Shown one piece after another: positions 12,094-56,922 of a DNA stretch of 64,000 nucleotides. The notes beneath the pieces were generated by a model. The model did not search any database, had not been told where the DNA came from, and saw only the letters and a list, made by a program, of their open reading frames with translations. Made by a program: the position numbers and the translations under genes. Within the stretch, counting starts at the first letter, position 1. The number at the start of each line of letters is the position of its first letter. The stretch is from Candidatus Woesearchaeota archaeon (GTDB lineage Archaea > Nanobdellota > Nanobdellia > Woesearchaeales > DSVV01): positions 2,554-66,553 of the forward strand of contig JABHXF010000009.1 of assembly GCA_018657385.1 (NCBI GenBank), in the 5' to 3' direction.

Positions 12094-12108
12094 AAAAGGT
12101 TTATATAT
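12094..12108 (+). promoter_or_regulatory. BRE/TATA-like promoter of locus 1 (AAAAGGTTTATATAT)
   Basis: About 52 nt upstream of ATG 12159. The 16-mer CCAAAAGGTTTATATA (12092..12107) is identical to the complement of 50826..50841 upstream of locus 2. Confidence 0.55.
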
Positions 12109-12158
12109 GACTTTACAAAGAGTAGGTATATTGAGTGGGTTAAAAAAGGGTGTATTTA

Positions 12159-15100
12159 ATGAATAAACAATTAGAGTACATTGCAATGTTTATGGCGCTA
12201 TTAGTTATTTCTCTCCCATTTTGTATCTCTTCAGTATATGCTGACCAAGCAAATATAATCAAAAAAGCAACTGTTTATGATGAAAATGATGTTGAAGGAG
12301 CAGTAAATGCTAAAGAAGGTACAATATTTGTTGAAGTTGAACTTGAATCAGGAGAAGAATTATTAAAAGAAGAAATATTCTATGAAAGTGATAATAATTT
12401 CTTAGGTACTATTAATAATATATTTGATTATTGTACAGGTGGAGTATGTGTTTTTTCCCATCCAATATATTCTAAAAATAATGGCCAATTTACTGCAAAT
12501 ATTAAAGTTGATACAATTGACACTAATGAGCAAGATAGTATTTCTGTTATATTTTGTGCAGATGATGTTCCACCAACAGTATTAATAAAAAGTGTTAAAC
12601 AACAAAAATCAAGTATTGAAATTGCATATAGTGTAGAAGACAATGTTGGCAATAATAAACAATGTGCACAAGGGATTAAAGAAGCTGTTTTATTAATTGA
12701 TGGAATCCCACAAGGAGTTAATAGTTATGATGGTGATAGTAAATCTGAGAGTGGAGTATTTACTAAAAGTATTTCAGAGTTAAGTGAATCTGAAGAATTA
12801 GTTGGTAGTATTAGTATTGTTGTACAAGGAATAGATGTTCTTGGAAATAAAGGAGAAAGTAATACAAAAACAAAAAATTTTGATTCTGCTAATCCTGAAA
12901 TATTAGCAGATACTTTAGCTGTTACAGATGAATTAGGTAACCCATTAGATCACATAGCAGGATCATTAGAAGGAGATGATTATGTTACAGTTATTAATAT
13001 TATGGTAGACATATTAGAAGATGATCTAAAATCTGCAGAAGCTGATTTATCAGGAATTACTTTAGAAATGGATGATAATACAGTTAAGGCAGAATGCACT
13101 AAAGATCAAACTCTTGAAGGAACAATTAATCATTGTGTATGGTCAGAAGTTAAGTTTGATGGAAAAGCTCAAGGAAATATTAAGATTGTTGCAAAAGATA
13201 AAGTTGGCAATAAAGTAACAGTTGAAAAAACTTTACCTATTACTAAAATAGAAGGTGGACCTGTTATTGATTCTATATTTATAGTAGGACAAGAAGGAAT
13301 GAGTAAGTCATATGTTAAAGATGAATTTGATGTAGGTATAAGATTAGCTGATCCTGTTGGATTTAATATAAGCAAACAAATTTATTTGAAAGGGAGTGGT
13401 GTTACAGGATTAAGTGATGCTGAAAGTAGTTTAGGGAAAAAACCAACAAAATGTATTGAACCTGTCCCAGGAACATGGGAATGTTATTTTGAAAAGTTGA
13501 AATCAACTAATGATAAAGAAGGAGTCTTAATAATTAATCCAAAAACTAAAAATGATCTTAATCAAAAAGTAAATATTGAAGGTTCAGCAATGACTTCATT
13601 AGAATTTATTATAGATAAATCACCTCCAACTTTAGTTGGCTTTAAACCAAACACACCTGATAAAATAACAGCTGAAGCAGTACAGAAAAAGAGTGGTACA
13701 GATTATAGTGAATTCCATGTTTATGAATCATTAGATTGTCCAACATATGAACAATCTTTAGACATAATAATGCTTATTGCAGATTATAACAAACCAAATA
13801 TTATTGCTGATGTCAGCTCAATTTCTTCAAAAAATATTGTTAAAGGTCAATGTAGTCAAGTTGATCAACAAGATTATCCTTATGCTGAATATAGCGTGCT
13901 AACAAATGGTTTTTTGTATGAATGTGATATTAGTATTGGTGAGATAAGACCTGCTGAGCAAAAAAATAACCCTATTTACATTAATGTAACAGATCCTGCA
14001 GGAAATATGATTATTGGTGGTGATGAAGATCAAGGTCTTACTTATAATGTTGACTTATGTACAACTGATTATGCTTTATTGCCACCTGATGAAATTGAAT
14101 ATATCAAAGTTGAACCTTATGATTCAACTTCAGATAGTTTAAAAGTTATGGCAATTTCATTAAGAAATTCTGATTATCCTTTAATGGTTAATATTGTTTA
14201 TAAGTTTAGAAGTAGTAATACTAAAATTTTATCTCAATCAATTACTTGTGATGGTGCATCAAGTATTGTATTCCCACATGGAGATAATGTAGTTGGTAAA
14301 TCTGGAGGAGATGAAGAGAAATTTGCAATTATCAAACTTAAAAAGAAAAAAACAGATGAAGATGACCCTAATGCAGATTGGGATCCTGAAACAGGGGAAG
14401 CAATAACTGATGGTTATGGATTAGATTGTACTGCACAACTTAGTATAAGACAAGGAGAAACAATTTATAGTCAATTGGAAGAAGAGAAGTTTGCATTAGA
14501 TATTGACCTAGTCGAGCCTGCTTTAGGTGGTTCTGAAGCAAGTGCTGATGCAAAATTCAAAGCACTTGAATATGAAATTGATAATCAACAAAGTGAAATT
14601 GATAAATGGCAAGATGTTGTAACTACATTTGATTGGATTTGTGGAATAGCAGAAGTATTAGGTATTGTTGCAACATTATTAAATACTGTAAAATCCACAG
14701 TACAAGGAATTTTAATGTTAATTCAGTGGACTGGTAATTCAGATTCAGCATGGAATAGTATTTGTACTGTTGTTAATAAAATAGTTTCAGCAATTAACCA
14801 ATTCATTTGGCCAACTAATTCCTTGCCAATTCCTCCACAAATAGGTCATATTTTCATGTATGTTTGTGCTTATTTCCATTGCACTTTTTCAGATCCTGAA
14901 TTCTGGGGAAGTATGGCTGGAGATTTAGTAAGTGCTGCATTAACTCCTTTAGCTGGAGCAATGTACGAAAATGCTGATAAGAAAGTAACAGAAGTTCCTA
15001 AAACAGAAGAGCAAGTAAATAAAGAAATGAAACAGTATGAAGAGAGTAATAAAGGCGATTTAGATAAAATGGACCCAGAACAAAAAGAAAAACATTTAGC

Positions 15101-16190
15101 TGATCTTAAATCACAAGTTGCAAAAGAAAAAACATTAGTTGTAACTGATATTGCAGATGCGGGTACTAAAAATGATGATTGGGATGAGAACGTTTTTGGT
15201 GAAAGTAAAAAAGATATTGAAGGCGGAACTATGATTGATTCAGAGATTAAACCAGGTGTCCCAAAAACAATAGGTGGTGATAAAGGATACTCTACAGGAG
15301 CTAAACAAAGCTTTGGAGATGTATATGGGCAACAAATGCTTAATAATTTCAAAGGAGTATATGCACCATCAATTCATAATTATTATACTACAGCAACTGG
15401 TGCTTATTCATTGACAGACCCAATTATGGGATTTGTAGGATTAACATTGGATGAAGAGGAAAAAAGTGCATGGTGGTTTGAATCCCTATCTCATCAAGAT
15501 GTTTATCATGGTTCAGGTTCATGGGGAGATGAGAAAAAAGCAATGGACAAACAAGTAAATAGATATTATGATGATTATGGAGAAGGAATAACATCAAATC
15601 ACCTAGAAGAGATTGACAAAGGAGTTAGCAAATATGTAGAAGATTTAGACATATTTAATCCATATAGGGTACAATCAATAGGTAATTTGTGTCCTAAAGC
15701 ATTATTATTTGAAGCAAAAAAACATAAACAACTATTATGTGTTAAAAAATTGTGTTATGATGCTGCAGCTGAGATTGGAAGCAACATGGCAAGATGTGAT
15801 AATGCATATAAAGTTCATGAATGTTTATATATAAAAAGTGCAGCAGAAACATTGCTTACTGCTGATAAAATAGAAAGTCTATGGTGGACAGCAATGGGGA
15901 CTAGTGCTGGATGGTCAGCTTTGTATGCTGCAGGCTCATTTGTACTTATTACCCTGCCATGTTATGATTATTATAAAGTTTCATCATCTACATCAGATTG
16001 TACTAAAGGTGTTAATGCAGGTGGAATTAGGTCTGCTTATTGTGGACTTGCAATGAGTGGGACTGCTATTTATGAATTTATTAATGTAATAACTGATTGG
16101 GAAGATGTAGGGGCAAAGTATTGGGAAAACTGGCTTGAAGGAGATGCTGCAGATGTTAAAAATTATTGTAAACTTGCGGATGTGGATTAA
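12159..16190 (+). CDS. giant secreted protein, family B (B1). Signal peptide, multiple Ig-like-looking segments, C-terminal Cys-rich hydrophobic module.
   Basis: ATG 12159 follows AAAGGGTG (the track starts at GTG 12150). Signal ...LPFCISSVYA/DQ with an AXA-type site. Recurring D-x-x-x-P-P segment boundaries. C-terminal 450 aa have several hydrophobic stretches and many Cys. Collinear with 44694..48458. Confidence 0.75.
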   Translation: MNKQLEYIAMFMALLVISLPFCISSVYADQANIIKKATVYDENDVEGAVNAKEGTIFVEVELESGEELLKEEIFYESDNNFLGTINNIFDYCTGGVCVFSHPIYSKNNGQFTANIKVDTIDTNEQDSISVIFCADDVPPTVLIKSVKQQKSSIEIAYSVEDNVGNNKQCAQGIKEAVLLIDGIPQGVNSYDGDSKSESGVFTKSISELSESEELVGSISIVVQGIDVLGNKGESNTKTKNFDSANPEILADTLAVTDELGNPLDHIAGSLEGDDYVTVINIMVDILEDDLKSAEADLSGITLEMDDNTVKAECTKDQTLEGTINHCVWSEVKFDGKAQGNIKIVAKDKVGNKVTVEKTLPITKIEGGPVIDSIFIVGQEGMSKSYVKDEFDVGIRLADPVGFNISKQIYLKGSGVTGLSDAESSLGKKPTKCIEPVPGTWECYFEKLKSTNDKEGVLIINPKTKNDLNQKVNIEGSAMTSLEFIIDKSPPTLVGFKPNTPDKITAEAVQKKSGTDYSEFHVYESLDCPTYEQSLDIIMLIADYNKPNIIADVSSISSKNIVKGQCSQVDQQDYPYAEYSVLTNGFLYECDISIGEIRPAEQKNNPIYINVTDPAGNMIIGGDEDQGLTYNVDLCTTDYALLPPDEIEYIKVEPYDSTSDSLKVMAISLRNSDYPLMVNIVYKFRSSNTKILSQSITCDGASSIVFPHGDNVVGKSGGDEEKFAIIKLKKKKTDEDDPNADWDPETGEAITDGYGLDCTAQLSIRQGETIYSQLEEEKFALDIDLVEPALGGSEASADAKFKALEYEIDNQQSEIDKWQDVVTTFDWICGIAEVLGIVATLLNTVKSTVQGILMLIQWTGNSDSAWNSICTVVNKIVSAINQFIWPTNSLPIPPQIGHIFMYVCAYFHCTFSDPEFWGSMAGDLVSAALTPLAGAMYENADKKVTEVPKTEEQVNKEMKQYEESNKGDLDKMDPEQKEKHLADLKSQVAKEKTLVVTDIADAGTKNDDWDENVFGESKKDIEGGTMIDSEIKPGVPKTIGGDKGYSTGAKQSFGDVYGQQMLNNFKGVYAPSIHNYYTTATGAYSLTDPIMGFVGLTLDEEEKSAWWFESLSHQDVYHGSGSWGDEKKAMDKQVNRYYDDYGEGITSNHLEEIDKGVSKYVEDLDIFNPYRVQSIGNLCPKALLFEAKKHKQLLCVKKLCYDAAAEIGSNMARCDNAYKVHECLYIKSAAETLLTADKIESLWWTAMGTSAGWSALYAAGSFVLITLPCYDYYKVSSSTSDCTKGVNAGGIRSAYCGLAMSGTAIYEFINVITDWEDVGAKYWENWLEGDAADVKNYCKLADVD

Positions 16191-16192
16191 AA

Positions 16193-16852
16193 ATGAAAAC
16201 AAGGATTAAAAAAAGTGTAATATTATGTTTGCTTATAATTTGTTTTAGTTTGTTCTCTACTTTAACTTACCCAATAACAGATCAAAAACCTAGCTCAAAT
16301 GATATGTATCCAACTACTGAAAATGATTTGCAATCAGCAGGATGGGGTGTTTATCCAGTTATTCCAGGATTTTATGATGTAGCTGATTGGGAAATTGCTG
16401 TATGTATGTATTATACTGGGCCAGGTAAAACTGTAGACAAAACTTTTACTGGAATAGGACTCTCTAAAGATTATCCTGGACAAGTTGATTTTATAGATGC
16501 ATATAGAGAAACAACATATGATCCTGATACAGATGCTGACACTAACTTATATACTGTTTGCTGGGGAGTTATTCCTTTTGAAGATTCAGTTACATTTAAT
16601 GTAATATTAAAAGGTGATGGATCACCAGTAAAAGTAACTAAATCTCCAAGAACAGCTCAAGAAATATCTGGAGATGTTGATTGTGATACTGTAATTGATG
16701 ATAAAATTTTTACAGACGCAGCAATTGTACTCCCAGGAAATACTTTTATTAAAGTACCTGTAGTTGACAAAGAAACAGGTAATCTAGTTACATTAGAAGA
16801 TGAATCTAATACTAATGTAGAATATGATGGTGATATAGACTTAGAAACTTAA
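16193..16852 (+). CDS. secreted protein (219 aa), possible short member of family C
   Basis: Start lies 2 nt after the B1 stop. Has a signal peptide. The motif W-x4-C-x-YY-x-G (ADWEIAVCMYYTGPG) resembles EYWLYDSVCTMDYYNTG in the C-domains of 35572..37899 and 38198..44596. Confidence 0.6.
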   Translation: MKTRIKKSVILCLLIICFSLFSTLTYPITDQKPSSNDMYPTTENDLQSAGWGVYPVIPGFYDVADWEIAVCMYYTGPGKTVDKTFTGIGLSKDYPGQVDFIDAYRETTYDPDTDADTNLYTVCWGVIPFEDSVTFNVILKGDGSPVKVTKSPRTAQEISGDVDCDTVIDDKIFTDAAIVLPGNTFIKVPVVDKETGNLVTLEDESNTNVEYDGDIDLET

Positions 16853-16894
16853 AAAATTAAAAAATAATTCCAATTAAGAGTAAATATTTCAAAA

Positions 16895-17782
16895 ATGAAT
16901 AAAATTAAAAAAAACTTTAAAATATTATTTCAAGATTATTTTGATTCATTTAAAAAAATTAGTTGGAGCTTTATCTTAATGATGATTACTGATTTTTTAT
17001 TTGTAATGTTATTGGTAGTTTTAATAACTTATTCATTTGGTTCTTTATCATCATATTATCAAGAAGCAATACCAGGGTTAGAAGAATATAAAAGTTTGTC
17101 TTTTTCCGAATTAAAAGAAAAAACCCCAGAGATTATCTCAAAAATTGAAGAAAATAAAGAAGAATTAGCAGCATCTGGTGTATATGATAATATTCAAATG
17201 AAAATAATAATGACATTATTATTGTCTGGTCTTCTTTTTTGTCTTTTATCTTCTTTGAGCAGATCAATTGTATGGGCACTAGTTAAAAAAAGCTTTAAAA
17301 AGTTCAATAGATTATTCATTTATAATTTTATATGGATTGTTTTCTGGGTTTTAGTGTTCATATTATTATTACTTATAATAAATCAAGAAACGATCATACA
17401 AGTATCATTATCTTTTATTTTTGTTTATGTTATACTTGCTTTGTTTTTTAGACTTAATTATAATATGAAAATCTATTCAAAAAATTCAATTACCGACGAG
17501 AAAATAAATAAAAATAGATTAATTAAACTTATTTTTTCAAAACCGGCAAAAGATATAATTGGTAGTTTGAAATTTTTTATATATTATTTTATTAGCTTTA
17601 TTTTAATTTTATTAACTTTTTCAATTGTTTTATCTATATCTAACTTATTCCAACGCATTATTATAAGTAATGAATTGATTATTGGCATTATTCAAATTAT
17701 TATAATTCTTGCATTAATTTCATGGGCAAGAATTTATCTAAATATAAGAATCCCATCAATTGTTGGAAAAACTCAAAATTAA
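16895..17782 (+). CDS. polytopic membrane protein, family D (D1)
   Basis: Multiple hydrophobic helices. Shares SIVWALVKKSFKKF and ISWARIYL motifs with GLIWAKIFNKKLDF and FSWAKRYL of 34674..35441. Confidence 0.65.
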   Translation: MNKIKKNFKILFQDYFDSFKKISWSFILMMITDFLFVMLLVVLITYSFGSLSSYYQEAIPGLEEYKSLSFSELKEKTPEIISKIEENKEELAASGVYDNIQMKIIMTLLLSGLLFCLLSSLSRSIVWALVKKSFKKFNRLFIYNFIWIVFWVLVFILLLLIINQETIIQVSLSFIFVYVILALFFRLNYNMKIYSKNSITDEKINKNRLIKLIFSKPAKDIIGSLKFFIYYFISFILILLTFSIVLSISNLFQRIIISNELIIGIIQIIIILALISWARIYLNIRIPSIVGKTQN

Positions 17783-17839
17783 AATTGTCATATTAAAGTT
17801 CATATAATATTAATAAAAACAAAAAAAGAGGAGATTACA

Positions 17840-20227
17840 TTGAGAATTAATTTAAAAAATAAAAAATCACAAGTTGCATTATTCATAATATTAGGGTTAC
17901 TAATATTAATTGGAGCAATTTTTCTAATTTATATTAGATCTACATCTGTAACACCTGAAAAATCATTAAGTATAATACAAGAACAATTACCAAATGATTT
18001 TAAACCTGTACAAACATTAGTTACACAATGTATTACTGATCTTTCAAAAGAAGCAATTATTAAAATTGGCTTAAATGGAGGATACATTGATCCAACAATT
18101 ACACAGTATTCTTCATCGTCATTTAATTTTGAAAAACAAAATCCAACAGAATCAGATGGAATAACAGTTTCTGATGAACATCATGTCCCATATTGGTATC
18201 ATATGCCTTCCCCAAGTAATTGTGAATTTTCAGATTGCTATACTGAACTTGATTATCCTCTTGCTATTTTCATGGAAGAACAAATATCTAAATATGTTGA
18301 TTTTAATCTAAATAATTGCCTTAATGATTTTGAAGCAATTAAAGAAATGGAGATTACTGTTACTCAAATAACAGAACCAGAAACAACAACAATTATTGCA
18401 AAAAATGATATTGTAGTCCAAACAAATTACAAATTAAGCCTTAAGAAAGGTAATTCAAAATCTGAAACAAATTATTATAATGTAATTCATAATTTAGAAA
18501 TGACTGAAATATATATGTTGGCAATTAACATTTTAAGATCTGAAGCAAATCATAGAACATTTGAAAAAATATTATTTAACACCATGAATTATTATATGGG
18601 TGCAGACCAAAACTTATTACCACCATTATATTCAACATTAGGTGAAGCATCATATATTATGTGGATGAAACATGATGTTAAAAATAAGATTGAAGAACTC
18701 ATATATGCATATCTTCCTTTAGTTAGAATTGAAAATACAAGGAATGCTGAATTATTTACATCTGAACAAGTAATTGAAAATAATATATTGAATTTTTTAT
18801 ACTTAAAAAATGATTTAGCTTTTAATAATTATGAGGTCTATTTCCATTATAATCAATGGCCAATCTATTTAGATATAAAACCACATATTGAAGATGGTTC
18901 AATTATAAGGGCTCAAAAAACAGTTTTTAGTTCAAGTATAGATATGATGCCTGATAAAATAATTTCAACATTTGAATCTAGATATGATATTGCATACCCT
19001 ATTTTAGTTGAAGTTAGAGATCCAGATGCATTTGATGGTCAAGGATATAGTTTATTTTTTGCATTAGAAGCAAATATCAAAGAAAATCAAGATATTGCAT
19101 TATATCGAAAATATGGCACACCAGAATGGCCAACAGACGCAGAGTTATCATTAACTGGAGTTGATGTAGAAAAAGTCAAAACTTATGATGAAGATGGTAA
19201 TGAAATGGAATTAGTTACACCACCTAAACCACCAGGAGAAATGTTTTTCTGTGATGAAGCACAAAGAGTTGCACAAGAAGTTAAATTTATTGTTAAAGAA
19301 TCTCATCCAATAAATATCCCAGTAGAAGAAGCAATGATATACTATGTATGTGGTCCTTTTGCAACATGTCTTCTCGGATTAACTGCAGAAGATGGAACAC
19401 TTACTACTAAATTGCCAATGTGTAATGGTGGTGCAGTAAAAGTTGCCTTAAAAGGTTATGATACCAAATATGTTCCTTTTGATTCAGAAGTAGGCTTTGG
19501 TTCTAAAACACAATTAATTGAAATTTACAAACCAATGAGAAAATTAGTTCAATTTCAAATTTTACCCATTCCAGAATTAGAAACATTTGATGCTGATGAG
19601 ATAACCAATAAAATTGAAATTAAAGAAATTATTGATGAAATTTCATTTGTTGAATCAAGTGAAAATTTAGCCTTGGGTCCTGATGATGATTTTAATATGG
19701 GTCTTATGTTAATGTTCATAAAAGAAAAAGAAAATGCTTATGATTCAGAATATATTTTTACAACATACCTTAATTTAAGTAAAAACTCTCCTGAAACAGT
19801 AGTTGAATTAGTTCCTGGAGATTATAGAGCAGAGATTAATTATTTTAATTATTCTGTTCATGAAGTATTAGGAGATAGTATATGTACTAGTGAATGGGCA
19901 GGTACATGTTGGGATAGTAAGTGGGTGGATGGAGTGAATATTAGTACAACTGTTCCAGGAATGGTTTCAATGAATTATGAAAATAATTACATGTTCCATG
20001 TTAAATATGATGATTTAGTAGATGAAGAAAAAGATACATTAATATTTTATATTCCAAAGGGACAATTGCCAGAAAAGATTACAGGGATGGAAATAATGAA
20101 TAAAATTACAGAAGCATCTGATAAATATAGATTATTTATTGAACCAAAATGGATGGACTCAAATGATGTAGAATGGATTATTCCACCAGAACACTGGGCC
20201 CTAGAAGAAGCATATGGTACCTCATAA
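17840..20227 (+). CDS. large extracellular protein with a prepilin/TadG-like N-terminus, family A (A1)
   Basis: TTG start 6 nt after AGAGGAG. N-terminus KNKKSQVALFIILGLLILIGAIFLIYI. Conserved block P-x5-V-x2-C-x8-EAI-x4-G-x2-GGY is shared with 48463..50733 and 32948..34411. Confidence 0.7.
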   Translation: MRINLKNKKSQVALFIILGLLILIGAIFLIYIRSTSVTPEKSLSIIQEQLPNDFKPVQTLVTQCITDLSKEAIIKIGLNGGYIDPTITQYSSSSFNFEKQNPTESDGITVSDEHHVPYWYHMPSPSNCEFSDCYTELDYPLAIFMEEQISKYVDFNLNNCLNDFEAIKEMEITVTQITEPETTTIIAKNDIVVQTNYKLSLKKGNSKSETNYYNVIHNLEMTEIYMLAINILRSEANHRTFEKILFNTMNYYMGADQNLLPPLYSTLGEASYIMWMKHDVKNKIEELIYAYLPLVRIENTRNAELFTSEQVIENNILNFLYLKNDLAFNNYEVYFHYNQWPIYLDIKPHIEDGSIIRAQKTVFSSSIDMMPDKIISTFESRYDIAYPILVEVRDPDAFDGQGYSLFFALEANIKENQDIALYRKYGTPEWPTDAELSLTGVDVEKVKTYDEDGNEMELVTPPKPPGEMFFCDEAQRVAQEVKFIVKESHPINIPVEEAMIYYVCGPFATCLLGLTAEDGTLTTKLPMCNGGAVKVALKGYDTKYVPFDSEVGFGSKTQLIEIYKPMRKLVQFQILPIPELETFDADEITNKIEIKEIIDEISFVESSENLALGPDDDFNMGLMLMFIKEKENAYDSEYIFTTYLNLSKNSPETVVELVPGDYRAEINYFNYSVHEVLGDSICTSEWAGTCWDSKWVDGVNISTTVPGMVSMNYENNYMFHVKYDDLVDEEKDTLIFYIPKGQLPEKITGMEIMNKITEASDKYRLFIEPKWMDSNDVEWIIPPEHWALEEAYGTS

Positions 20228-20337
20228 GAATTTAATTATATTATAATCATTAAATTAGATTATAATAATTATTAAAATAATTAATATAATTTTAAGATGA
20301 TGGGTATAGAATGTAAAATAATAGATACAGAATAAAA

Positions 20338-22521
20338 ATGCCAAACCAAACTATAGTTAATTTCATTAAACAGCATGTTAAACAAGGTTATAGTATTGAG
20401 CAGATTAAAGATTATTTGAAAAAGTATGGATTTAAAGAAAAAGAAATGGAAGAAGCTATTGATTTCTATTACCAAGAGCAAAATAAACATAAAAAAGCAA
20501 ATAAAGAAGCAAAAAAATCAGGAACATCTGGTCAAGCTAGCCCACAATTAATTACTTATGTCAAAGATAATTTGGCAAAAGGATATGATGAACAACAAAT
20601 TAGAAATTACTTATTGCAATATGGTTATGATCATAGTACAGTAGAACAAGCAATGCATGCTGCACAACCCCACCATATTAAACATACATTAGAAATACAC
20701 CCAGCAACTGTAATGCATATTCTTTTGATTGTAGCTGTTATTGGTGGTCTCGTATTAGGTGGCTACTTTTTATTTGGAATATCTGATAGTACACCAGAAC
20801 TATTAGACTACTCTATTCAAGTAGATAATACAGATGTTAATCCAGGAGAAATGCTTTATTTTGTTAATAAAATTACAAATATGGGAGATAAAAGAAGATA
20901 TGATATTTTTATAGAATTTAAAATAATAAATAAAGATACATTAGATGAAATAACATCTTGGAGTAAAACATTTGCAATAGATGTTGTTGTTGACAAACCA
21001 GAATCTGTTCTTATTCCTGCAAATACTAAACCAGGAAAGTATTTATTACATGGAGAGGTTCATTATGGAGATATGAAAAATAAGGCATCTAACAGCTTTA
21101 AAATCCTTTCTACAGGTTCTCAACCAAGTTGTTTTGATAATATAAAAAATCAAGATGAACTTGGAATTGATTGTGGTGGAACATGTAATACATGTGAAAC
21201 ATGTTATGATGGAATCCAAAATCAAAATGAAGAAGGAACTGATTGTGGGGGAATATGTAATACATGTGAAACATGTTTTGATAATATAAAAAATCAAGAT
21301 GAAACAGGAATAGATTGTGGTGGAGTTTGTAATATACCATGTAGTGGAGAAGATAGTGAAGATGATAATGATTATAAAAAAGATTATGATAGTGATGTGG
21401 ATGAAGATTATAGTTATACACCAAGTGTTTATGATGGTGGTAAAGCAAATATAGTTGAACAAATAATAGAAGCAAAAGAATTAGCTAAAACAAATCCAGG
21501 CAATGCATTAGGTATTTGTAATAATTTAGTGGTTAAATCATCAACAGACAGCTGTATTACCAGTGTTGCTAAAATTAGTAATCAATCTAGTTATTGTTAT
21601 CAAATTAATAATGACAAAAAATTAGATGCGTGTTACATGTATTTTGTAACAAATTATAATGATTATACATTATGTGATAGTATTGTAAATGATTTATATA
21701 AAAGTAGTTGTGATAATCTGAAAAAATTAGCTAATCTGCAGAAAAATTATGGAGAAAAAACAGAACCAGGAACACAACAAGGTAGTGGTTCACAAGTTGT
21801 ACTGCCTGGAGATATAAAACCAACATCATCTCCAGATCCAGTTGGTGTTCCATCAAGTAGTGGGGATTTATTTAATAATGTTAAAGTACAACAAATTGAT
21901 GCAACATCTTATGTAATTACATGGACAACTGGTACAAGTGAAAAAAGTGTTGTTAAGTATGGAACAAAACCACATCTACTTAAAAAAACAGAATTTGATT
22001 TTACTTCTACTAAAAATCATGAAGTTACATTAAGTAATCTTGATCCTGCTAAAAAATATTATTTTGCAATGAACACTGTTATAGCTAATAATATAGTTGA
22101 GAGTGATGTTTATGATTTAAGTACTGGAAATAAATGGATTGTTACATCAGAGCCAGTTCAAGAACCTTCACCTCTTGAACCTACTCCTGGACCAACTCCA
22201 TCTCCACAACCTGGTCCTGAACCTACTCCAGATCCTACACCAACTCAACAAATACAATTTAACAGTATGAAAGCAATAAAAGTTGGTTATGGCACATATA
22301 AAATAAGTTGGACAACTAATTTTGCTACAGCAAGTATTCTAAAATATGGAAAACATCCAGATGTATTAGTAAATGTTGAATCTGATGCAGAAGAAAAAAC
22401 ATCACATAGTATTACTATTTCTAGTTTAGAATTAAACAAAAAATATTATTATCAAGTTGCTGGTATTGTAAATGAAATTGCAATTGGTAGTGAAGTTGAA
22501 AGTTTTGATGTAGAAATTTAA
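20338..22521 (+). CDS. single-pass membrane protein: two cytoplasmic 40-aa repeats, TM, CARDB-like segment, three Cys-rich repeats, two FN3-like domains joined by a Pro-rich linker
   Basis: Repeats IVNFIKQHVKQGYSIEQIKDYLKKYGF and LITYVKDNLAKGYDEQQIRNYLLQYGY. TM LLIVAVIGGLVLGGYFLF. 3x C-x13-CGG-x-C-x2-C. Two copies of the Y-x-I-(T/S)-W-T-T...KYG...KKYY pattern. Linker PSPLEPTPGPTPSPQPGPEPTPDPTP. Confidence 0.7.
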   Translation: MPNQTIVNFIKQHVKQGYSIEQIKDYLKKYGFKEKEMEEAIDFYYQEQNKHKKANKEAKKSGTSGQASPQLITYVKDNLAKGYDEQQIRNYLLQYGYDHSTVEQAMHAAQPHHIKHTLEIHPATVMHILLIVAVIGGLVLGGYFLFGISDSTPELLDYSIQVDNTDVNPGEMLYFVNKITNMGDKRRYDIFIEFKIINKDTLDEITSWSKTFAIDVVVDKPESVLIPANTKPGKYLLHGEVHYGDMKNKASNSFKILSTGSQPSCFDNIKNQDELGIDCGGTCNTCETCYDGIQNQNEEGTDCGGICNTCETCFDNIKNQDETGIDCGGVCNIPCSGEDSEDDNDYKKDYDSDVDEDYSYTPSVYDGGKANIVEQIIEAKELAKTNPGNALGICNNLVVKSSTDSCITSVAKISNQSSYCYQINNDKKLDACYMYFVTNYNDYTLCDSIVNDLYKSSCDNLKKLANLQKNYGEKTEPGTQQGSGSQVVLPGDIKPTSSPDPVGVPSSSGDLFNNVKVQQIDATSYVITWTTGTSEKSVVKYGTKPHLLKKTEFDFTSTKNHEVTLSNLDPAKKYYFAMNTVIANNIVESDVYDLSTGNKWIVTSEPVQEPSPLEPTPGPTPSPQPGPEPTPDPTPTQQIQFNSMKAIKVGYGTYKISWTTNFATASILKYGKHPDVLVNVESDAEEKTSHSITISSLELNKKYYYQVAGIVNEIAIGSEVESFDVEI
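21130..21345 (+). repeat. in-frame 75-bp tandem repeat x3 (25-aa Cys-rich unit)
   Basis: TGTTTTGATAATATAAAAAATCAAGATGAA...TGTGGTGGA...TGTAATACATGTGAAACA recurs three times with few substitutions. Confidence 0.85.
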
Positions 22522-32947: not shown

Positions 32948-34411
32948 TTACTCTAATTCTTTATATGCTTCTTCCTCTACAAACAAAGTCATTTCTTGTT
33001 CACCAACATAACCATTTTGGTCTACAACAGTAATCCTGATTGTATGTTCCCCAATGTTTTCTTCAACAGGAATAAAACCAATTATCCCTGTTTTTTCATC
33101 AATATTAAATAAATCAGTATCATCGTAATAAGTAAATATAGTTTCTTCTGCTTCAGTTATTTCTCCAAGCTCTTCATCTGAATTAACTCCAGCAATAACT
33201 TGATAACTATATACATCCCCAATATATGCTGTTTGATAATCAATATATTCAATAGTTGGCTCATTAAATGATTTAACAACGTCTAACATCATTTTTTCTG
33301 CTCTCATTTCTTCATCTTCACTAACAATACCAATTGTAACTATATAACTTCCAATGTCAGTTTCAGCAGGTGTAAATTGTATTAATCCTGTTAGTTCATC
33401 AATTTCAAATAATTCAGTATTATCATAATATCCTTTGATATTACCAACAGCCTCTACTTGATAGCTATACAAATAACCTGCTTCTGTTACCTGCTTTGGG
33501 ATTGGCAATAAATCTAATGCATCTTCTTTATACTCATCTTCAATATCAAAGAAATGTACAAACATAAAAGTTACGTTATCTCCACCATATTCTTCCTTTG
33601 TGAAAAAATAAAGAATTTGTGAAGTATGGTCAGGAACAGGATCAAGACCAATAAAATTACCTTCTTCATCAGATTCATGGAATACAATGCCATAATCCTC
33701 AACTTCTGCTGTTTTTACTACAATATCATATATTTCTGTTAAATCCCTAATACAACTTAAACAGATAAGATTATCATTTGCTGCTTGATATTCTGAATAT
33801 TCTTTTGCAGCTTGATATAGTTCAGGATAAATAGATTGTACCTCAGTTTCAAATAAACTCCATGTCTTAATTGTTTCTCCAATTTTAACTTCAATTGGAT
33901 AAATCATCTTAACAATAATATTGTCTTCATACATTTCTGAATTAACTTCCAATTGTAATGGCTGAGCTGTAACCTCATAATTTAAATTTGAAAAATCTAA
34001 ACAATCTAAAACAAATGATTTAATCCTTAATGAAAGCTGTTTTTGAAGCTCATCTTTTGTTGGAATAACAGATTCAGAATCATAAACATAAAAAGGAATA
34101 TTAAAAAATGTACTATCGCCAAGATCATTAGTAACTGTAAAAGGCATTGATATTAAACCACCATCTTGATTTGTTCTTACTTCCTTGAATCCACCTTGAA
34201 CAGAATTCCATATGATTGCTTCTTTTGTTGCTTGCTCCATACATGATGTGACATAATTATATATTGGCTTTAGTTCATTAGGAACATCTTGTATTTTTGT
34301 AACCCGAACTCCTTGAGTAAGATAATTTTGAAAATAAATACCTAAACTAAATAAAATTAAGAAAACCATACCTATTATGATGAATAATGTAATTGCGCCT
34401 CTTTTATTCAT
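32948..34411 (-). CDS. family A protein (A3, 487 aa): prepilin/TadG-like N-terminus plus two cadherin-like (He_PIG-type) Ig repeats
   Basis: MNKRGAITLFIIIGMVFLILFSLGIYF. Conserved block P-x5-V-x2-C-x8-EAI-x4-(V/G)-x2-GG(Y/F), here PIYNYVTSCMEQATKEAIIWNSVQGGF. Repeats YSYQV-x(n)-LF-x-ID-x-TG-x-I-x-F-x-P. Confidence 0.7.
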   Translation of the reverse strand: MNKRGAITLFIIIGMVFLILFSLGIYFQNYLTQGVRVTKIQDVPNELKPIYNYVTSCMEQATKEAIIWNSVQGGFKEVRTNQDGGLISMPFTVTNDLGDSTFFNIPFYVYDSESVIPTKDELQKQLSLRIKSFVLDCLDFSNLNYEVTAQPLQLEVNSEMYEDNIIVKMIYPIEVKIGETIKTWSLFETEVQSIYPELYQAAKEYSEYQAANDNLICLSCIRDLTEIYDIVVKTAEVEDYGIVFHESDEEGNFIGLDPVPDHTSQILYFFTKEEYGGDNVTFMFVHFFDIEDEYKEDALDLLPIPKQVTEAGYLYSYQVEAVGNIKGYYDNTELFEIDELTGLIQFTPAETDIGSYIVTIGIVSEDEEMRAEKMMLDVVKSFNEPTIEYIDYQTAYIGDVYSYQVIAGVNSDEELGEITEAEETIFTYYDDTDLFNIDEKTGIIGFIPVEENIGEHTIRITVVDQNGYVGEQEMTLFVEEEAYKELE

Positions 34412-34673: not shown

Positions 34674-35441
34674 TTATAATGCTTTATTAAAAACAAGACC
34701 TAAATATCTCTTTGCCCAACTGAAATATATTATAAATACAAGAAGATTAATGAACATTCTAACATTAAAAGGAATAAAATTCATGTATATTGCAATCTGT
34801 GATAATAAGAATAGAACAACTAAAGTAAGAGCAGTAATTATTATATAGGGCAATATGAACAAATAAATCTTTTTGAAAGTTACCTTAAAGAAACTTTTTA
34901 ATTTACCCAATACGAATAATGCATTAGCACTATGAGTTATATAAATTATCGCTGGCAATATGACAAGAACAAAGAACCATGCTTGAATTTTAGCAACCAC
35001 ATAATTCGCTGTAATTGCAAAGAATAATATAAATAATAACATTAAACAAAAATTCAATATACTTAAGTATAAAACTTTTTTAAAATCTAATTTTTTATTG
35101 AATATCTTAGCCCAAATTAAGCCCTTGAAAAAACTGAAATTTGCTAATAACAATATAAATATTAAAGCAGTGAAGATCCCAAAAACATATAGTGATGATT
35201 TAATTTGTTGGCCCATAACCATTAATGCTTCTAAAGGTAAGTTTTGCATACCCTCGACAAAACTATTTGTTTGGAATAAAAAAGTTGCTTCAGGTAAAAT
35301 ATATTTAATAAAAATTGCTAATGAGAAAATAAAGATAAAATAGTAAATTAAATCATATACAACTGTAAATAAATATTGCGGTAAATTCTTTTTTCTAAAG
35401 CAATCTAAGCTTTTAATGAATAATGAATTTTTTATGTGCAT
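34674..35441 (-). CDS. polytopic membrane protein, family D (D2)
   Basis: Six or so hydrophobic helices, with motifs shared with 16895..17782. Confidence 0.65.
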   Translation of the reverse strand: MHIKNSLFIKSLDCFRKKNLPQYLFTVVYDLIYYFIFIFSLAIFIKYILPEATFLFQTNSFVEGMQNLPLEALMVMGQQIKSSLYVFGIFTALIFILLLANFSFFKGLIWAKIFNKKLDFKKVLYLSILNFCLMLLFILFFAITANYVVAKIQAWFFVLVILPAIIYITHSANALFVLGKLKSFFKVTFKKIYLFILPYIIITALTLVVLFLLSQIAIYMNFIPFNVRMFINLLVFIIYFSWAKRYLGLVFNKAL

Positions 35442-35571: not shown

Positions 35572-37899
35572 CTAGCTCTTATAATAATTAGCTGGCATTT
35601 GACCACAACTATAATCTCCATTATCAACATCAATTATGAATTCTTCTCCACCTAAGACATTACATATAGGCTTAACATACTTATCATTATCTAATATTTT
35701 CAAACAAACATGATCAAATCTACATTCTTGTTTTTTAAAGTTAGTACCATCACCATCACATACAAAAGTTGTTTCATCTCCTGCATAATGGATTCTATGA
35801 ACTCCTAAAGGATTGTTTACAGCAAACTCATCCATCCAACCATATGCACCAGTATATTCTGATCCAAATGATTTTTTCTTTGTACAATGATTGTATAAAT
35901 AAACAATACCATGTATTGGTCCAATTGTTTGTAAAGTAAAAGAATATCTAAATGCATTTTCATCTACTACTTCTTTTTCTCCACCTAAAGTTACAATTAC
36001 TTCTCCTTCATCTAAATAACCAAGATTAAAGCCAAAATTATGTTCTTGTGTTATTGTTAATCCTGAAATAACATCAGTTTCACTCTCACCAGTATTATAA
36101 TAATCCATTGTACAAACAGAATCATACAACCAATACTCTAATCTTGAAAAAGCATTTTCAGTCCAATCATCTAATAAAGTTCCAAAAACACTTTCTACTC
36201 TAGATCTAAACTCAAAATTAAGATTATCATATGTTGCATCCATTTTTTTTTGTGCTCCTGTACATTCTGGACCAGCATAAGCTTTTTTGTCACATGCTTC
36301 AATTGTCTTTTCAATATAACCAGTTGGATCACCAGCACATCTTTTTAAGCCATCGAAAGTAGTACAATAAATACTTCCTTCTGATTCATGAACACATCCT
36401 TTAACATTATCACACTTTCTTTTTGCACAATCTCCACCAGAAGCAGCATCTGCTGCAGTACATCTTTTACCATCTGCAGTTGCATAAACATAACCTTCTG
36501 TTCCTTGGAAAACACTATGATGTTTAAACGTAAAAGAAGCTTTACCAGCATCGCAATTATCATCATCTTCACAAACAAATACATCTCCCTCTGTATCTAA
36601 CCCACCTATTTTAGATGATGATTTTTGTTCTTTAGGTTTTTGTTCTTCTTTTGTTTCTTCTTTCTTTTCTTCTTCTTCATTAGGTGAATTTAGTGGTACA
36701 GTTTTAGTTACAGCCATACTATCTTTAGCAAGTTGGCCTAATTTATTGTATTTGTTAAGATCATCTCCTAAATTATTAGCCATTGTACAATCATTTTTTT
36801 TACATACTAATATTACCTTACCTTCCTGATCATAATAAGCAGTTTCATCATCATCAGTAAGGGAAAAATCAAAACTAACACCCTTTTTATCTCCAGACTT
36901 TTCATTTAAAGTATAACCTTTTCCCTTTTCCCCATCAACATAATAGATTAACTTTTCCTGAGCTTCTTCTTCACCATCATCAGCATCTTCTTCTTCTTCT
37001 CCTGGAGTGTTTGATTTTGGTGGTTTAGCATAAGTGTCTAGTTTCTCTTGATTATTCTTTGCAGTTTTTTTAAGTTGATTTGCTTCTTTAGTTAATTTAT
37101 CTGCAAGTTCTATTTTTCCTTGCTTTTTAGCTTCTTCTGCCGCTTTTTCATAATCATTAGCTAATTCCTTTACTTTTTCATTGTATTCTTCTAACTCTGT
37201 TACTAATTCCTTTCTTTTTTCCTCATCAGGGGACACAGTAAGTACAAATGAAAGTTCATCAGAAAGTTCAGTAATCTTTTGATCATATTCATCTTTTTTC
37301 TTGTCTGCATCTTCAATTGCTTTTTCTAAATTCTCAATTGGTTGTTCTTCTTCAGATGCTTCATCTTCCCCATCTTCATCATCATCATCATCCTCATCTT
37401 CTTCTACATTTGATTCAGGTGGAGGAGCAGGTTCAGTAGAAGGATTTTGTTGTGCATATCCTGTTTCAAATGCACCAACCATTTTATTAAAATCATCTTT
37501 ATCTTTTGGTTCCATCTCAGTGTCCATCATTTGTTTACATTGATTTGCATTACCACATTCACGTTCATCACCACCCATAATAAAAGGTTTTTTTGCATAA
37601 GCTTTAACTAAAGTTGCTTTACCAGAATCATCAACCTTAAATTTAACTTTAAGCTTCCCAGTACCAGCTTCTTTGTAACCTTCATAATTACCTTCATCAT
37701 CAACAGGATATAATGTAATTTCTTTCATCCCTTGACCAATAGTAATTGGATTACCATTTTGTGTTACAGGTTCATCTTTCCAATCTGCCATTCCTGCCAG
37801 ATTACTTTGATAGCTAGGACTATAGAAAACTGCCATTGAAAATAGAAACATGACTAGTACAATCATGCTTACTGCCTTTCTAAAATGCTGTTTTGGCAT
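35572..37899 (-). CDS. family C protein (775 aa): signal anchor, acidic and K/E-rich coiled-coil-like region, conserved roughly 335-aa Cys-rich C-terminal domain
   Basis: The C-terminal 335 aa align almost continuously with the C-terminus of 38198..44596 (for example NFEFRSRVESVFGTLLDDWT, YWLYDSVCTMDYYNTG, ISGLTITQEHNFGFNLGYLDEGE, HYAGDETTF). Confidence 0.75.
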   Translation of the reverse strand: MPKQHFRKAVSMIVLVMFLFSMAVFYSPSYQSNLAGMADWKDEPVTQNGNPITIGQGMKEITLYPVDDEGNYEGYKEAGTGKLKVKFKVDDSGKATLVKAYAKKPFIMGGDERECGNANQCKQMMDTEMEPKDKDDFNKMVGAFETGYAQQNPSTEPAPPPESNVEEDEDDDDDEDGEDEASEEEQPIENLEKAIEDADKKKDEYDQKITELSDELSFVLTVSPDEEKRKELVTELEEYNEKVKELANDYEKAAEEAKKQGKIELADKLTKEANQLKKTAKNNQEKLDTYAKPPKSNTPGEEEEDADDGEEEAQEKLIYYVDGEKGKGYTLNEKSGDKKGVSFDFSLTDDDETAYYDQEGKVILVCKKNDCTMANNLGDDLNKYNKLGQLAKDSMAVTKTVPLNSPNEEEEKKEETKEEQKPKEQKSSSKIGGLDTEGDVFVCEDDDNCDAGKASFTFKHHSVFQGTEGYVYATADGKRCTAADAASGGDCAKRKCDNVKGCVHESEGSIYCTTFDGLKRCAGDPTGYIEKTIEACDKKAYAGPECTGAQKKMDATYDNLNFEFRSRVESVFGTLLDDWTENAFSRLEYWLYDSVCTMDYYNTGESETDVISGLTITQEHNFGFNLGYLDEGEVIVTLGGEKEVVDENAFRYSFTLQTIGPIHGIVYLYNHCTKKKSFGSEYTGAYGWMDEFAVNNPLGVHRIHYAGDETTFVCDGDGTNFKKQECRFDHVCLKILDNDKYVKPICNVLGGEEFIIDVDNGDYSCGQMPANYYKS

Positions 37900-44693: not shown

Positions 44694-47600
44694 TTAATCA
44701 TACTCTGGAATAGTCCCATACTCTTTTGCTTGATCACTAAATTCTTTATCTACTTCATCATCATCATCACTACTACCGCCCCAATCAAAGGCATCATCCA
44801 TCTCTTCATATAGCTGTTTAACATTTGTAATTAAGTCTAATATACTTAAAACACCAACAATGAAGTTTCTTACCCTTACTCCACCACAACTTAATCTTTG
44901 TGCCTTAGTTACTCCTGTACAACCAATTTCAAATGCTCTTGTCACTAATGATGAAACAAGTTTAGTAGCATATTGTTTTAATAAATCAGGTAAAATATGC
45001 ATGAATTGACCAAATGTTAACATACAAAATATTCTCCAACCCATATTAGGACAATCTTCAATATCTTCCCCTAATAAATAAGCTTTATTGTAACAAGTAT
45101 TTTGCGCAACTAATATTCTCTTAACCATTTCTAATGTTCTAATAATCGTAGGAACACAAGGTGGCCAACATATCAAAGCTACCCAAAAGTTTTTATGAGG
45201 ATCAAATGGGAACCTTATTTGCGAACTTCCAGTCCAATATTCAGCAGGATCAATTGGATTTCCTGAAACTTCATTAAGTGTTGCAGGATCAATACCTTTT
45301 TTACCAAACAGTGAATATGTTAATTGATCTGGTGTCCATTCATCAATATTCCATTTTCCACCAGTAATTTTACTATTCCAAACACTACTACATTCTGAAC
45401 ATAATGTTAGATCACAAATAAAACCTAAACTTAAAGCATTTTTACTGTTCCATTGGTTTTTCATATTACCTACTTCACCAACATCAGCTGGATCACCATC
45501 TTTACCATACCAAATCTTAGTCAACAAATCAACTCCTAACTTACACTCATGAGCTGCTGCTGTAGCAGGTGAAAATGCTGCTGTAAAACCTTCATAGATC
45601 ATACAAATATTATTCCATATTTGCATTACAAGATTAATCATCTTACAATATGGTGCAATATATTCAACATATTTTAAGACATCAATAATAGTATTTAATG
45701 TATCAATGGTATCTTTATATTCTAAAACCTTATCTAATGTACTATCAGCTGGATTGCTAAATATTTCTTTTCCCAATGGAACTTCTAAAGAAAATACAAG
45801 AACTTCATTAGGTGAATAAGCTTTTTTACCAGCATAAGAACTTTGAATAATTTCAGCTTTACATGCAATTGTTAATGGCTCAGGTGTTTCATCATAATCT
45901 TTTTCAGTAGCTGCTTTTAATTCTGCTTCTGTTGCCTCAAACTGGGGTATTGCAAGCATTACTTCTTTTTGTTCTCTACTTTGTAATAAACTATCAGTCA
46001 TATAAGTTTGAGAAATAATTGCTGCTGGCTTAATATCTTCAGCAGTAAAAGCTTCTCCCCTTGCAACTGTACATTCACCAATATTAATATCATGAACAAA
46101 TGACCCTGAAATTTTCCTATATTCTGATAAGTCAAGTTCCATCCTAAAAAAGGTTTGAGTTGACATGTGCAAAAAGTTTCTATTTAATTCATAGCCATAA
46201 TCATAAATGTCTGTAATATCTAATTCAAATTCATCTTCGAAAAAATCAACATTACCCTCAACAAGGTCATAAATTTTAAATTTGTCAGTATTATCCTCAT
46301 TAGTGTTGCCTGCTGCATCTGTTGCTTGTAAATTAAAAAAGTATGTGCCTGCAATTGGCACTGTAGGAAGCTCCCATGTACATAAATAAAGATATTCTCT
46401 GTAAGGGAAATTTCTATATTTATCATCTATGCCTTCTACTAATGCTGGTTCAACTAAATCACAACTTGTAGCAGGAGTTGGAGTTGGCCAATGCTCTTCA
46501 ATATTTAATTGTGCAAAAACCTTTGAAGGATCTAAAATACTACCATACTCCATAACATATGCATTAATTACTATTATTTCTTCAGGTGAAGTTGTAATTA
46601 TTTGCCCAGCTTTTGTTGAGCCACCACCATAGGCTTGTCCTGCTGTATCAGCTTCTGCTGCTGAATCTTCTGGAGTAAAACCAGGAGCTGGTTCTTGTAT
46701 TGGTGCCTCATCACTTGGAGTAAAACCAACTGCTTGCCCACCTAATGCACCTGCAGAAGTAACATCCATTAAAATAATTTCAGGAGCAAGGTTATCAAAT
46801 ATTAAATCTTGCTCTAATGATTCTGAATATTCTGTAGAAACTTTGTTTCCTGCAATATCAGCTGTATCAAAATGAACTCTTGCTTTTTGCTTAACATAAT
46901 ATAGTCCTGTTAATGGATCTCCTTTTGGATTTTCTTGAGCAAGCTTACTAGGATTAATATTTTTCCAAACACATGAAAATAATCCAGAATCACCAGAACT
47001 ACAATTATATGCTTTTTTCTTTGCTTCTCCTGTAACATCTTTTAAGTCAAGGAAAACATCATTTGCATCTAACCCAGAGCCAATCTCAATAAAATCAACA
47101 TAAATAACATTTTTATTTGTGTCGTTAAGATAAAGAATAGTTTTATCAGTATAAATTGCTCCAACTTCAGGTGGTTTATCATCAATATTAACTGAAAGTG
47201 TAAAATCACCTTCTGCTTTGTTTTCATCTATATCTGAAACAGAAACTTTTGCAGATAAACCTTCAGGATTATTTAACTTAATTCCATTCCAAACAAATTC
47301 ATAAATAGTTATAGTATTATCTTCACCTTCACCAACATCACCTAAATCAAGTTCATAAGTTTTAAAGGAAGAAGGTTTTTTGTTTTCATAACTTGTTTCT
47401 GAAGGGTTTAAGCCTAAGAAATCTGCTGTAACATCACTTGTACTAAGAAGATTATCATCTGAAATATTTAAATAAAGATCTACTTGAGGTATTTCATCCT
47501 TTATTATATAATTTAGTGGCAGTCCATTTTTCTTTGCAGTTAAATCACCCATAAAAATTGGAGCAGTTAAATCTAAATTAATTGGTTTACATTTTTCATC

Positions 47601-50986: not shown

Positions 50987-51012
50987 TTGTTTTGATATTC
51001 TTTATATATATA

Positions 51013-55391: not shown

Positions 55392-55408
55392 TATGGAGGG
55401 AAAACAAA

Positions 55409-55762: not shown

Positions 55763-55776
55763 ATCTTTGGTGAAAA

Positions 55777-56139: not shown

Positions 56140-56143
56140 AAAA

Positions 56144-56509: not shown

Positions 56510-56527
56510 ACAATTGGAGGGAATAAA

Positions 56528-56887: not shown

Positions 56888-56922
56888 ACAAACAATGAAA
56901 AATAAATTGTAGGAAATAAAAA

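Follow-up and report, generated by a model that had tools for sequence, protein, structure and literature searches.

Two related gene cassettes, each built around a protein with a pilin-like N-terminus, lie in a 64,000-nucleotide (nt) stretch of the genome of a Candidatus Woesearchaeota archaeon (assembly GCA_018657385.1, contig JABHXF010000009.1, positions 2,554 to 66,553, forward strand), hereafter the window. We define the cassette as adjacent same-strand genes of four families: B, a secreted repeat protein; c or C, a secreted protein of variable size; D, a polytopic membrane protein; and A, the pilin-like protein. Locus 1 contains all four plus a fifth gene, E, and locus 2 contains A, B, D and a second A-family gene (A'), with two proteins, C2 and C2', occupying the C position. 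We regard the cassette as a cluster of genes for an archaeal surface structure in which a pilin-like protein takes part; it is widely conserved, ancient and uncharacterized in DPANN archaea, and no description of it was found in the literature searched. Our preferred interpretation, to which we assign a probability of roughly 0.45, is that its products form a membrane-anchored surface complex dedicated to cell-cell or surface attachment.

Locus 1 lies on the plus strand and begins with B1 (12159..16190; 1343 amino acids, aa), a secreted protein with a Sec signal peptide ending in ...SSVYA|D. It continues with c1 (16193..16852; 219 aa), a small secreted protein with a Sec-type signal, D1 (16895..17782; 295 aa), which has six hydrophobic segments, A1 (17840..20227; 795 aa), which bears the class III (prepilin-like) signal motif KKS|QVALFIILG, and E1 (20338..22521; 727 aa), a single-pass membrane protein. 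Open reading frames (ORFs) at these coordinates bear out the gene order proposed by a first-pass annotation made from the sequence, as well as the polytopic nature of D1 and the 2-nt interval between the B1 stop and the next start. From B1 to E1, the intergenic gaps measure 2, 42, 57 and 110 nt. The mechanical ORF of B1 opens at GTG 12150; ATG 12159 is preferred since it is preceded by a Shine-Dalgarno-like GGGTG, 5 nt ahead of it (11 nt counting to its first base), and since it matches the start of database protein P0030. About 50 nt 5' of this start, a BRE/TATA-like element (transcription factor B recognition element and TATA box; AAAGGTTTATATA, 12095..12108, plus strand) was read from the sequence and is a putative archaeal promoter of the cassette. 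The short gaps and the presence of this element make a single operon plausible.

Locus 2 lies on the minus strand in the order A2 (48463..50733; 756 aa; KLG|QTTTFIIIG), B2 (44694..48458; 1254 aa), C2 (38198..44596; 2132 aa, secreted, with a Cys-rich C-terminal 350 aa), C2' (35572..37899; 775 aa), D2 (34674..35441; 255 aa) and A3 (32948..34411; 487 aa), a short A-family member with the motif KRG|AITLFIIIG. The same B-C-D-A order is therefore contained within it. Every cassette product is predicted to carry a signal peptide, a transmembrane (TM) anchor or multiple TM segments, and these predictions show all of them to be extracytoplasmic or membrane-bound.

Alignments identify the A, B and D pairs of the two loci as true paralogues, and not as likenesses of composition. 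The pairwise comparison that the first-pass annotation had proposed as a check revealed similarity beyond composition directly for A and B, and by profile for D. A1 and A2 align with E=4e-25 over ~580 columns at 21% identity. The match of A1 with A3 (E=2e-10) covers the N-terminal part only, and A3 matches orthologues at 1e-19; it shares the N-terminal region of the A family and ends in immunoglobulin (Ig)-like repeats. B1 and B2 align by BLASTP with E=1e-10 and 24% identity across the first 410 columns, in which the two signal-peptide ends (SSVYA-D and SSAYA-D) are paired as anticipated. A profile of the B family made from six sequences, with B2 left out, retrieves B2 at E=1e-56, in three pieces (the N-terminal repeats, the middle helical region and the Cys-rich C-terminal module) that are collinear along the whole length. 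The C-terminal module, already singled out as shared, contains six Cys that are invariant in seven sequences, both window copies included. For D1 and D2, the pairwise E is only 0.043 and thus marginal, but a profile made only of D proteins from three other genomes retrieves D2 at 5e-21 and D1 at 2.6e-12, and the paired motifs IVWA/LIWA and SWARIYL/SWAKRYL sit on the invariant columns W127, W277 and Y281.

Two of the motifs put forward earlier stood in part. D-x3-P boundaries do occur in B and recur as 'xDxxGN...DxxxP' modules in the family consensus, but their number (eight in B1, six in B2) says little by itself since ~4-5 are expected by shuffling. Likewise, the block following the N-terminal helix of A1, A2 and A3 exists, but its real spacing is P-x4-V-x2-C-x6-EAI-x3-G-x2-GGY and A2 lacks the EAI. 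With the A and B pairs at 21-24% identity and the B-C-D-A order preserved at both loci, the description of deeply diverged paralogues that kept their order holds. The identical heptapeptide DLVEPAL, at position 786 of B1 and 667 of B2, marks the junction of the repeat region with the helical C-terminal half in both proteins.

The resemblance between the loci could in principle be a product of chance or composition in an AT-rich genome, the window having a GC content of ~30%, or the cassettes could be mobile-element or viral cargo; we regard this explanation as hardly credible. The marginal pairwise score of D1 and D2 and matches to Mycoplasma membrane families that look compositional speak for it. 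Chance is ruled out by the independent profile matches (1e-56 for B2, 3e-12 for D1), the collinear pieces and the invariant Cys, and a viral or mobile origin is rejected given that the cassette had no PHROGs match, that integrases and repeats were not evident among the ORFs scanned, and that synteny with housekeeping genes is conserved. The matches to Mycoplasma families (MG_279/280, MSC_0624) and to DUF4064 fall far below cut-offs and were judged compositional.

Loci from other genomes were fetched through homologues of A and their ORFs were classified by profiles, so that the relatives of B were taken from loci retrieved through A; a word-indexed homologue search gave only two matches for B1 and none for the alignment of the B C-terminus. 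The cassette recurs in about a dozen Woesearchaeota/Nanoarchaeota genomes, and all named homologues of the proteins studied come from metagenome-assembled genomes (MAGs) of Candidatus Woesearchaeota or 'Nanoarchaeota'. The full B-c-D-A-E arrangement is found in L005 and in three loci of one Rifle Woesearchaeon (L002, L003 and L004), B-c-D-A in L010, B-c-A with E on the opposite strand in L006 and L007, B-A in L009 and A..B in L008. A second arrangement, A-B-C-D, is represented by L001 (the 1-Mb B3_Woes genome), with the variants A-B-C-D-A' in L013 and A-B-C in L014. B adjoins A wherever the contig reaches far enough, with two exceptions: L015, in which a giant protein with an SLT (lytic transglycosylase) domain is adjacent to A, and L012, in which B is not upstream of A and the downstream side is off the contig. 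E is kept beside the cassette in L001, L002, L005, L006, L007, L008 and L013.

Locus 1 had been described as a second, shortened copy. Its synteny with L002, in which queA lies upstream and gyrB/PAC2 lie beyond E, refutes this view and identifies locus 1 as the canonical form of the cassette; locus 2 matches the A-B-C-D-A' type. Identities between the window and L002 are 32% for B, 27% for c, 25% for D and 35% for A, against 72% for GyrB and 71% for PAC2, a fast divergence relative to the neighbors that would be expected for exposed interaction proteins. A1 shares 34-38% identity with its orthologues and B1 32% with that of L002, against only 21% between A1 and A2 and 24% between B1 and B2. 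In crude neighbor-joining trees, A1 and B1 group with loci of the B-c-D-A type from other genomes, sequences of the A-B-C-D type fall into separate groups, and A2 and B2 branch deeply outside. Identities and trees together indicate that the A1/A2 and B1/B2 split predates the divergence of these genomes, in agreement with the proposal of an old duplication. The data fit either an ancient duplication or an old lateral acquisition. Both copies keep intact ORFs, the invariant Cys and the motifs, which is consistent with the suggested retention by selection.

Two further observations concern these relatives. In L002 (12688-15780), and also in L003, an insertion of ~3.5 kb separates A from E and carries AAA_14/DUF4143, an AbiEii toxin-like gene and a small helix-turn-helix (HTH) gene; E is hence separable from B-c-D-A, and the site tolerates a defence or toxin-antitoxin island. 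In two A-B-C-type loci, small ORFs of 68 and 45 aa (L013:9805-10011 and L015:6653-6790) overlap the start of A. Ribbon-helix-helix-like in sequence, they may be dedicated regulators; no equivalent was found upstream of A2 in the window.

The A family supplies the clearest link to known surface systems. Its signal follows the motif [KR][KR][GAS]|Q[VIL]T[VIL]F, with K or R at -3 and -2, G, A or S at -1, and T-x-F-[IV]-I-x-G after the Q at +1, which is invariant in the 27 full-length members. The pattern [KR][KR][GAS]|Q/A, with its putative cleavage site and a hydrophobic helix after it, is shared by A1, A2 and A3 and by each of the 27 homologues in the alignment. The strict motif is confined to A-family proteins among the 779 ORFs of the window and the retrieved loci. 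The label 'prepilin-like' was therefore well chosen, given the invariant Q. The companion label 'TadG-like' fails because the VWA domain is absent: neither this domain nor any other Pfam or NCBIfam match was found in A1, A2 or A3. Like TadG and the large minor pseudopilins of bacterial Tad systems, A is a large protein with a pilin-like N-terminal helix encoded in a surface-structure cluster, but it has neither the VWA domain nor the TadA/B/C/V context of TadG. The window does encode a VWA protein (56923-58059), which is unrelated to A and devoid of the class III motif. Archaeal class III proteins (type IV pilins, archaellins, EppA/PibD substrates and the Sulfolobus bindosome) are closer parallels, sharing with A the short positive leader, the small -1 residue, the Q at +1 and a hydrophobic helix of ~20 residues. 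As in the bindosome, a large globular protein is mounted on a pilin-like N-terminus and encoded apart from the assembly machinery. Unlike these proteins, however, A has 700-800 aa with a novel alpha/beta domain, and it matches no Pfam family of archaeal pilins (e.g., DUF361 and the archaeal pilin families).

The AlphaFold2 (AF2) model of A1, with a predicted local distance difference test (pLDDT) score of 80, starts with the TM helix, continues with an alpha/beta domain (~residues 52-420) and ends in beta-sandwich domains. In the model, the C-terminal domains resemble CnaB/transthyretin-like beta-sandwiches. Foldseek searches of PDB and BFVD matched only generic beta-sandwich domains, among them those of SpaC, BcpA, SdrD and a streptococcal ancillary pilin, with TM-scores <=0.24; that the matches cover the beta-sandwiches only was judged from the hit descriptions. 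The alpha/beta domain had no match in either database and, as modeled, is novel. Invariant A residues are Cys, aromatic, Pro and Gly, and form no catalytic-type set. An exhaustive profile search recovered 9,813 cluster representatives of the family at E<=1e-3 and 2,123 at E<=1e-30; the named members among those seen are all 'hypothetical protein', and no Pfam or NCBIfam model covers the family.

These features invite the alternative that the cassette encodes the tip or minor-pilin complex of a type IV filament (TFF) whose motor is encoded elsewhere. In that case A would be a minor pilin of giant size with a priming or capping role in the fibre, and the adhesin cargo would be B and c. The invariant class III motif with Q at +1, which we take to be the pattern of EppA-type archaeal pilins, agrees with this. 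So does a recent preprint, which reports TFF systems in DPANN and class III proteins often encoded apart from the machinery (bioRxiv 10.64898/2026.04.22.720090). Nevertheless, TFF core genes were not near the cassette in any inspected locus: no ATPase, platform or peptidase adjoins A, and the companions B, c and D are not known in TFF systems. D is polytopic, as are the TFF platform proteins PilC/FlaJ, but has no Pfam, NCBIfam or PDB match. The cassette also lacks a small major-pilin gene, and an N-terminal helix with a class III motif could equally serve as an uncleaved signal anchor. We therefore consider a filament tip rather unlikely.

After the signal peptide, B1 has about five Ig-like repeats and then a helical region of coiled-coil/hydrophobic character, which a variable and charged linker joins to the Cys-rich C-terminal module; in the family consensus, the 'xDxxGN...DxxxP' repeat module includes a Cys pair and is present in ~5 copies. 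Two of 11 B members match Pfam Big_13 (9.5e-6) and one matches Big_3_3, B1 itself matching none. Against PDB, the family profile gave a weak match (1.4e-4) to the Ig-like adhesin domains of R28 and beta protein (an IgA-Fc-receptor). Searching PDB with profiles of the B C-terminal module and of D yielded nothing, and no Pfam, NCBIfam, PHROGs or PDB family was found for A, B, c or D. Tandem Ig-like domains are found in the B repeats, in the sandwiches of the A1 model and in the fibronectin type III (FN3) domains of E1. Ig-like adhesins and Gram-positive pilins (SpaC, BcpA, SdrD and R28/Alp) likewise display tandem Ig-, CnaB- or transthyretin-like sandwiches and, like the cassette proteins, are secreted, repeat-rich and fast-evolving. 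They differ in that no sortase signal is present here, the envelope is archaeal, TM-scores are 0.1-0.25, and only single generic domains match. On sequence comparison, the overlap of the cassette with known systems is limited to the class III signal and generic beta-sandwich domains.

A constitutive envelope scaffold, i.e., an S-layer or S-layer anchor in which B (~1,300 aa) would serve as lattice or stalk protein while A, D and E anchor it in the membrane and locus 2 is a spare or alternative set, also deserves consideration. The Sulfolobus SlaA/SlaB layer is likewise a multi-component envelope with a stalk of beta-sandwiches, coiled coil and membrane anchor, and the succession in B of beta-sandwiches, coiled coil and C-terminal hydrophobic part resembles SlaB. 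The core-genome context of the cassette, syntenic with queA, gyrB, Nop10 and PAC2, and the very wide distribution of the A family (9,813 representatives) point the same way, as do matches to SlaB (8qox_B) from the A1 model (Foldseek E=2e-4, TM-score 0.11-0.17) and from the B C-terminal profile (E=0.25). However, these matches are weak, generic and partial, without significant sequence or whole-fold similarity to SlaA/SlaB. Moreover, known archaeal S-layer loci consist of one or two genes and have no 6-TM or class III signal protein, in contrast to the five genes of the cassette with both a 6-TM and a pilin-like protein. The extreme size variation at the C position (170-2,100 aa) and the quick divergence are more typical of interaction proteins. 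On balance, an S-layer role seems improbable, although it deserves to be kept in mind.

The C position is the most variable part of the cassette. C2 and C2' share a Cys-rich C-terminal domain (63% identical over ~350 aa) and looks of their sequences suggest a recent tandem duplication with head swap; their N-terminal anchors are similar and their middles unrelated. Two metagenome scans returned no relatives of the C2/C2' tail. The suggestion that c1 is a minimal C-domain is supported through the C proteins of other genomes, but not against the C proteins of its own window. Orthologues of c1 occupy the same position in L002, L005, L006, L007 and L010. The c-family profile matches the C-terminal domain of a 715-aa C-position protein in L014; once this tail is added, its reach extends to the tail of the C protein in L013 (988 aa; independent E-value 4.8e-6). 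In addition, hhalign aligns the c profile with the big-C tails of L001, L011, L009 and L013 at E=1.1e-4 over 116 columns. With C2/C2' as targets, c1 gave BLASTP E>10, no significant hmmsearch match and hhalign E of ~0.5, which stayed non-significant with or without extra sequences. In a Nanoarchaeota MAG (L009:6025-10008), the 'B' gene is a B-C-like fusion encoding one protein of 1,327 aa, with A directly after. The B-type Cys-rich module stands mid-protein (~620-790), and the ~500 aa after it run to a C-like tail (YNKVCIEF...LCQTIV). This fusion is evidence of the Rosetta-stone kind for a joint action of B and C.

D is a 6-TM protein; the invariant residues of D1 are D33, W127, N197, W277 and Y281, none of a catalytic type. 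E1 begins with two cytoplasmic three-helix repeats (weak RecX_HTH1 match), crosses the membrane at 128-146, and exposes three Cys-rich 24-aa repeats and two FN3-like domains split by a Pro-rich linker. The FN3-like modules (Pur_ac_phosph_N, 1.2e-15; fn3, 1.4e-5) and the Cys repeats had been announced from the sequence and were recovered, but Pfam did not confirm the CARDB-like module.

DPANN archaea account for a large share of archaeal diversity, and their way of life is thought to involve attachment to other cells; attachment organelles have been seen by cryo-electron tomography (cryo-ET) in cultivated relatives. The one cryo-ET paper checked (PMC11420986) contained none of the gene-related terms sought. 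The attachment complex that we favor is suggested by the membrane or extracellular nature of the products, their adhesin-type domains, the lack of catalytic signatures, the fast evolution, the variable C, and the conservation of the set in a lineage thought to live attached. It also agrees with a comparative survey in which families specific to Woese/Pacearchaeota are mostly membrane or extracellular proteins whose function is not known (Castelle et al. 2021, PMC8204110). Homology, gene order and sequence features were established directly, and from these we infer the assembly and the role. The products would assemble at the surface of this presumably episymbiotic archaeon for attachment to cells or surfaces. 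B, exported by Sec, would form an Ig-like stalk or adhesin, docked at the membrane by its C-terminal module with its many Cys. The partner or head bound to B would be the small secreted c or, in locus 2, the large C proteins, and the 6-TM D would act as the membrane platform. A would be cut by a prepilin-type peptidase encoded elsewhere, its N-terminal helix then sitting in the membrane or in a pilus-like fibre and its beta-sandwich domains being displayed. Finally, E would connect the complex with the cytoplasm, its helical repeats lying inside the cell and its FN3 domains outside. The second cassette, with its far larger C proteins, could provide an alternative surface specificity, and the two loci are plausible candidates for alternative surface variants.

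Several points weigh against such an attachment complex. 'Adhesion' is read from generic fold types, as no component has a characterized homologue. The docking of the B module at the membrane is a guess, since the AF2 model of the B1 C-terminal 557 aa, computed from a three-sequence alignment, is all-helical with a pLDDT of only 37 and is unusable. The homology of c1 to the window's own C2/C2' was not demonstrated by BLASTP, hhalign or hmmsearch. The T2SSE ATPase, the T2SSF platform and the A24 prepilin peptidase are absent from the scanned ORFs of the window, and no Pfam family of filament machinery was found among the precomputed annotations within 10 kb of the cassette in L001, L002, L003, L013, L014 and L015. 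Lastly, lying among housekeeping genes and being present almost throughout the lineage, the cassette could also have a constitutive role in the envelope, for example as an S-layer.

A bolder version of the attachment complex, of which we are doubtful, would make the cassette the core of an as yet undefined envelope machine specific to Woesearchaeales-type DPANN, a parts list for host attachment or cell bridging. Its central part would be a class III signal peptide protein of giant size, joined by an Ig-repeat protein rich in Cys, a 6-TM platform of its own and a 'C' head that can be swapped. If this were true, the two cassettes would confer alternative host or surface specificities.

The cassette might alternatively be a display platform for effector enzymes that attack the host envelope, its B-C core acting as a carrier that here bears only binding domains. 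This idea stems from L015 (6780-15612), where a distant A-family gene (613 aa) directly precedes the gene of a secreted protein of 2,329 aa that contains SLT and Peptidase_M10 domains. In the 779-ORF set, this protein weakly and collinearly matches the coiled-coil and Cys-rich segments of B (E=0.011-0.075), and a C-like stretch was seen in it by eye. Giant SLT proteins (fam00969) are described from the same lineages, Woese/Pacearchaeota, by Castelle et al. 2021 (PMC8204110), and a YkuD-domain protein adjoins locus 2. However, the similarity between B and the SLT protein is below statistical significance, and the Pfam and NCBIfam scans found no enzyme domain in B1, B2, c1 or C2, B1 and B2 being devoid in particular of SLT and peptidase domains. 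The link to giant SLT proteins through L015 is thus suggestive only, and an effector platform appears distinctly less probable than either an S-layer or a filament tip.

As a conserved, fast-evolving cassette whose products are all membrane-bound or extracellular, this gene set offers a concrete and testable candidate for a DPANN attachment structure. At minimum, the large unannotated A family (~9,800 clusters, no Pfam/NCBIfam model) deserves to be defined as a family. In addition, one small genome here holds two copies of ancient divergence, a natural comparison by which structural parts could be told from specificity-determining ones.

The surroundings of the cassettes mix archaeal markers (PAC2 and a double-HTH Lrp/AsnC regulator) with bacterial-type QueA and GyrB; together with the origin of the named homologues, this gene content assigns the window to a DPANN archaeon of the Woesearchaeales type. 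QueA, an enzyme of queuosine biosynthesis (10812-11987, minus strand; Pfam E=3e-105), is encoded directly upstream of the locus 1 cassette and is syntenic in L002; its presence agrees with the queuosine genes reported for some DPANN (PMC8204110). Beyond A3, at the end of locus 2, lies the gene of a 1043-aa secreted protein X (29754-32885, minus strand), which has no significant Pfam match, PG_binding_1 being hit weakly (E=0.055). It converges with the gene of a 517-aa protein (28204-29757, plus strand) whose YkuD domain (L,D-transpeptidase) is of a peptidoglycan-related fold, here encoded by an archaeon. Divergent from A2, a 957-aa protein (50992-53865, plus strand) has one TM segment, a large extracellular part containing Cys and an N-terminus with a weak methyltransferase-like match; it sits where E sits in L013 (divergent from A), and profile search does not class it as E-like. 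A further cluster of secreted, Cys-rich proteins, all of them devoid of the class III motif, extends from 55056 to 59012 on the plus strand. It begins with a run of five small paralogues of 111-121 aa, three with the N-terminus 'AKNVQVNLEQ...' and a Cys-rich tail and two sharing 'MNSIDD...', followed by the VWA protein mentioned above, which also contains a MopE motif, and by a MopE-motif Cys-rich protein (58059-59012).

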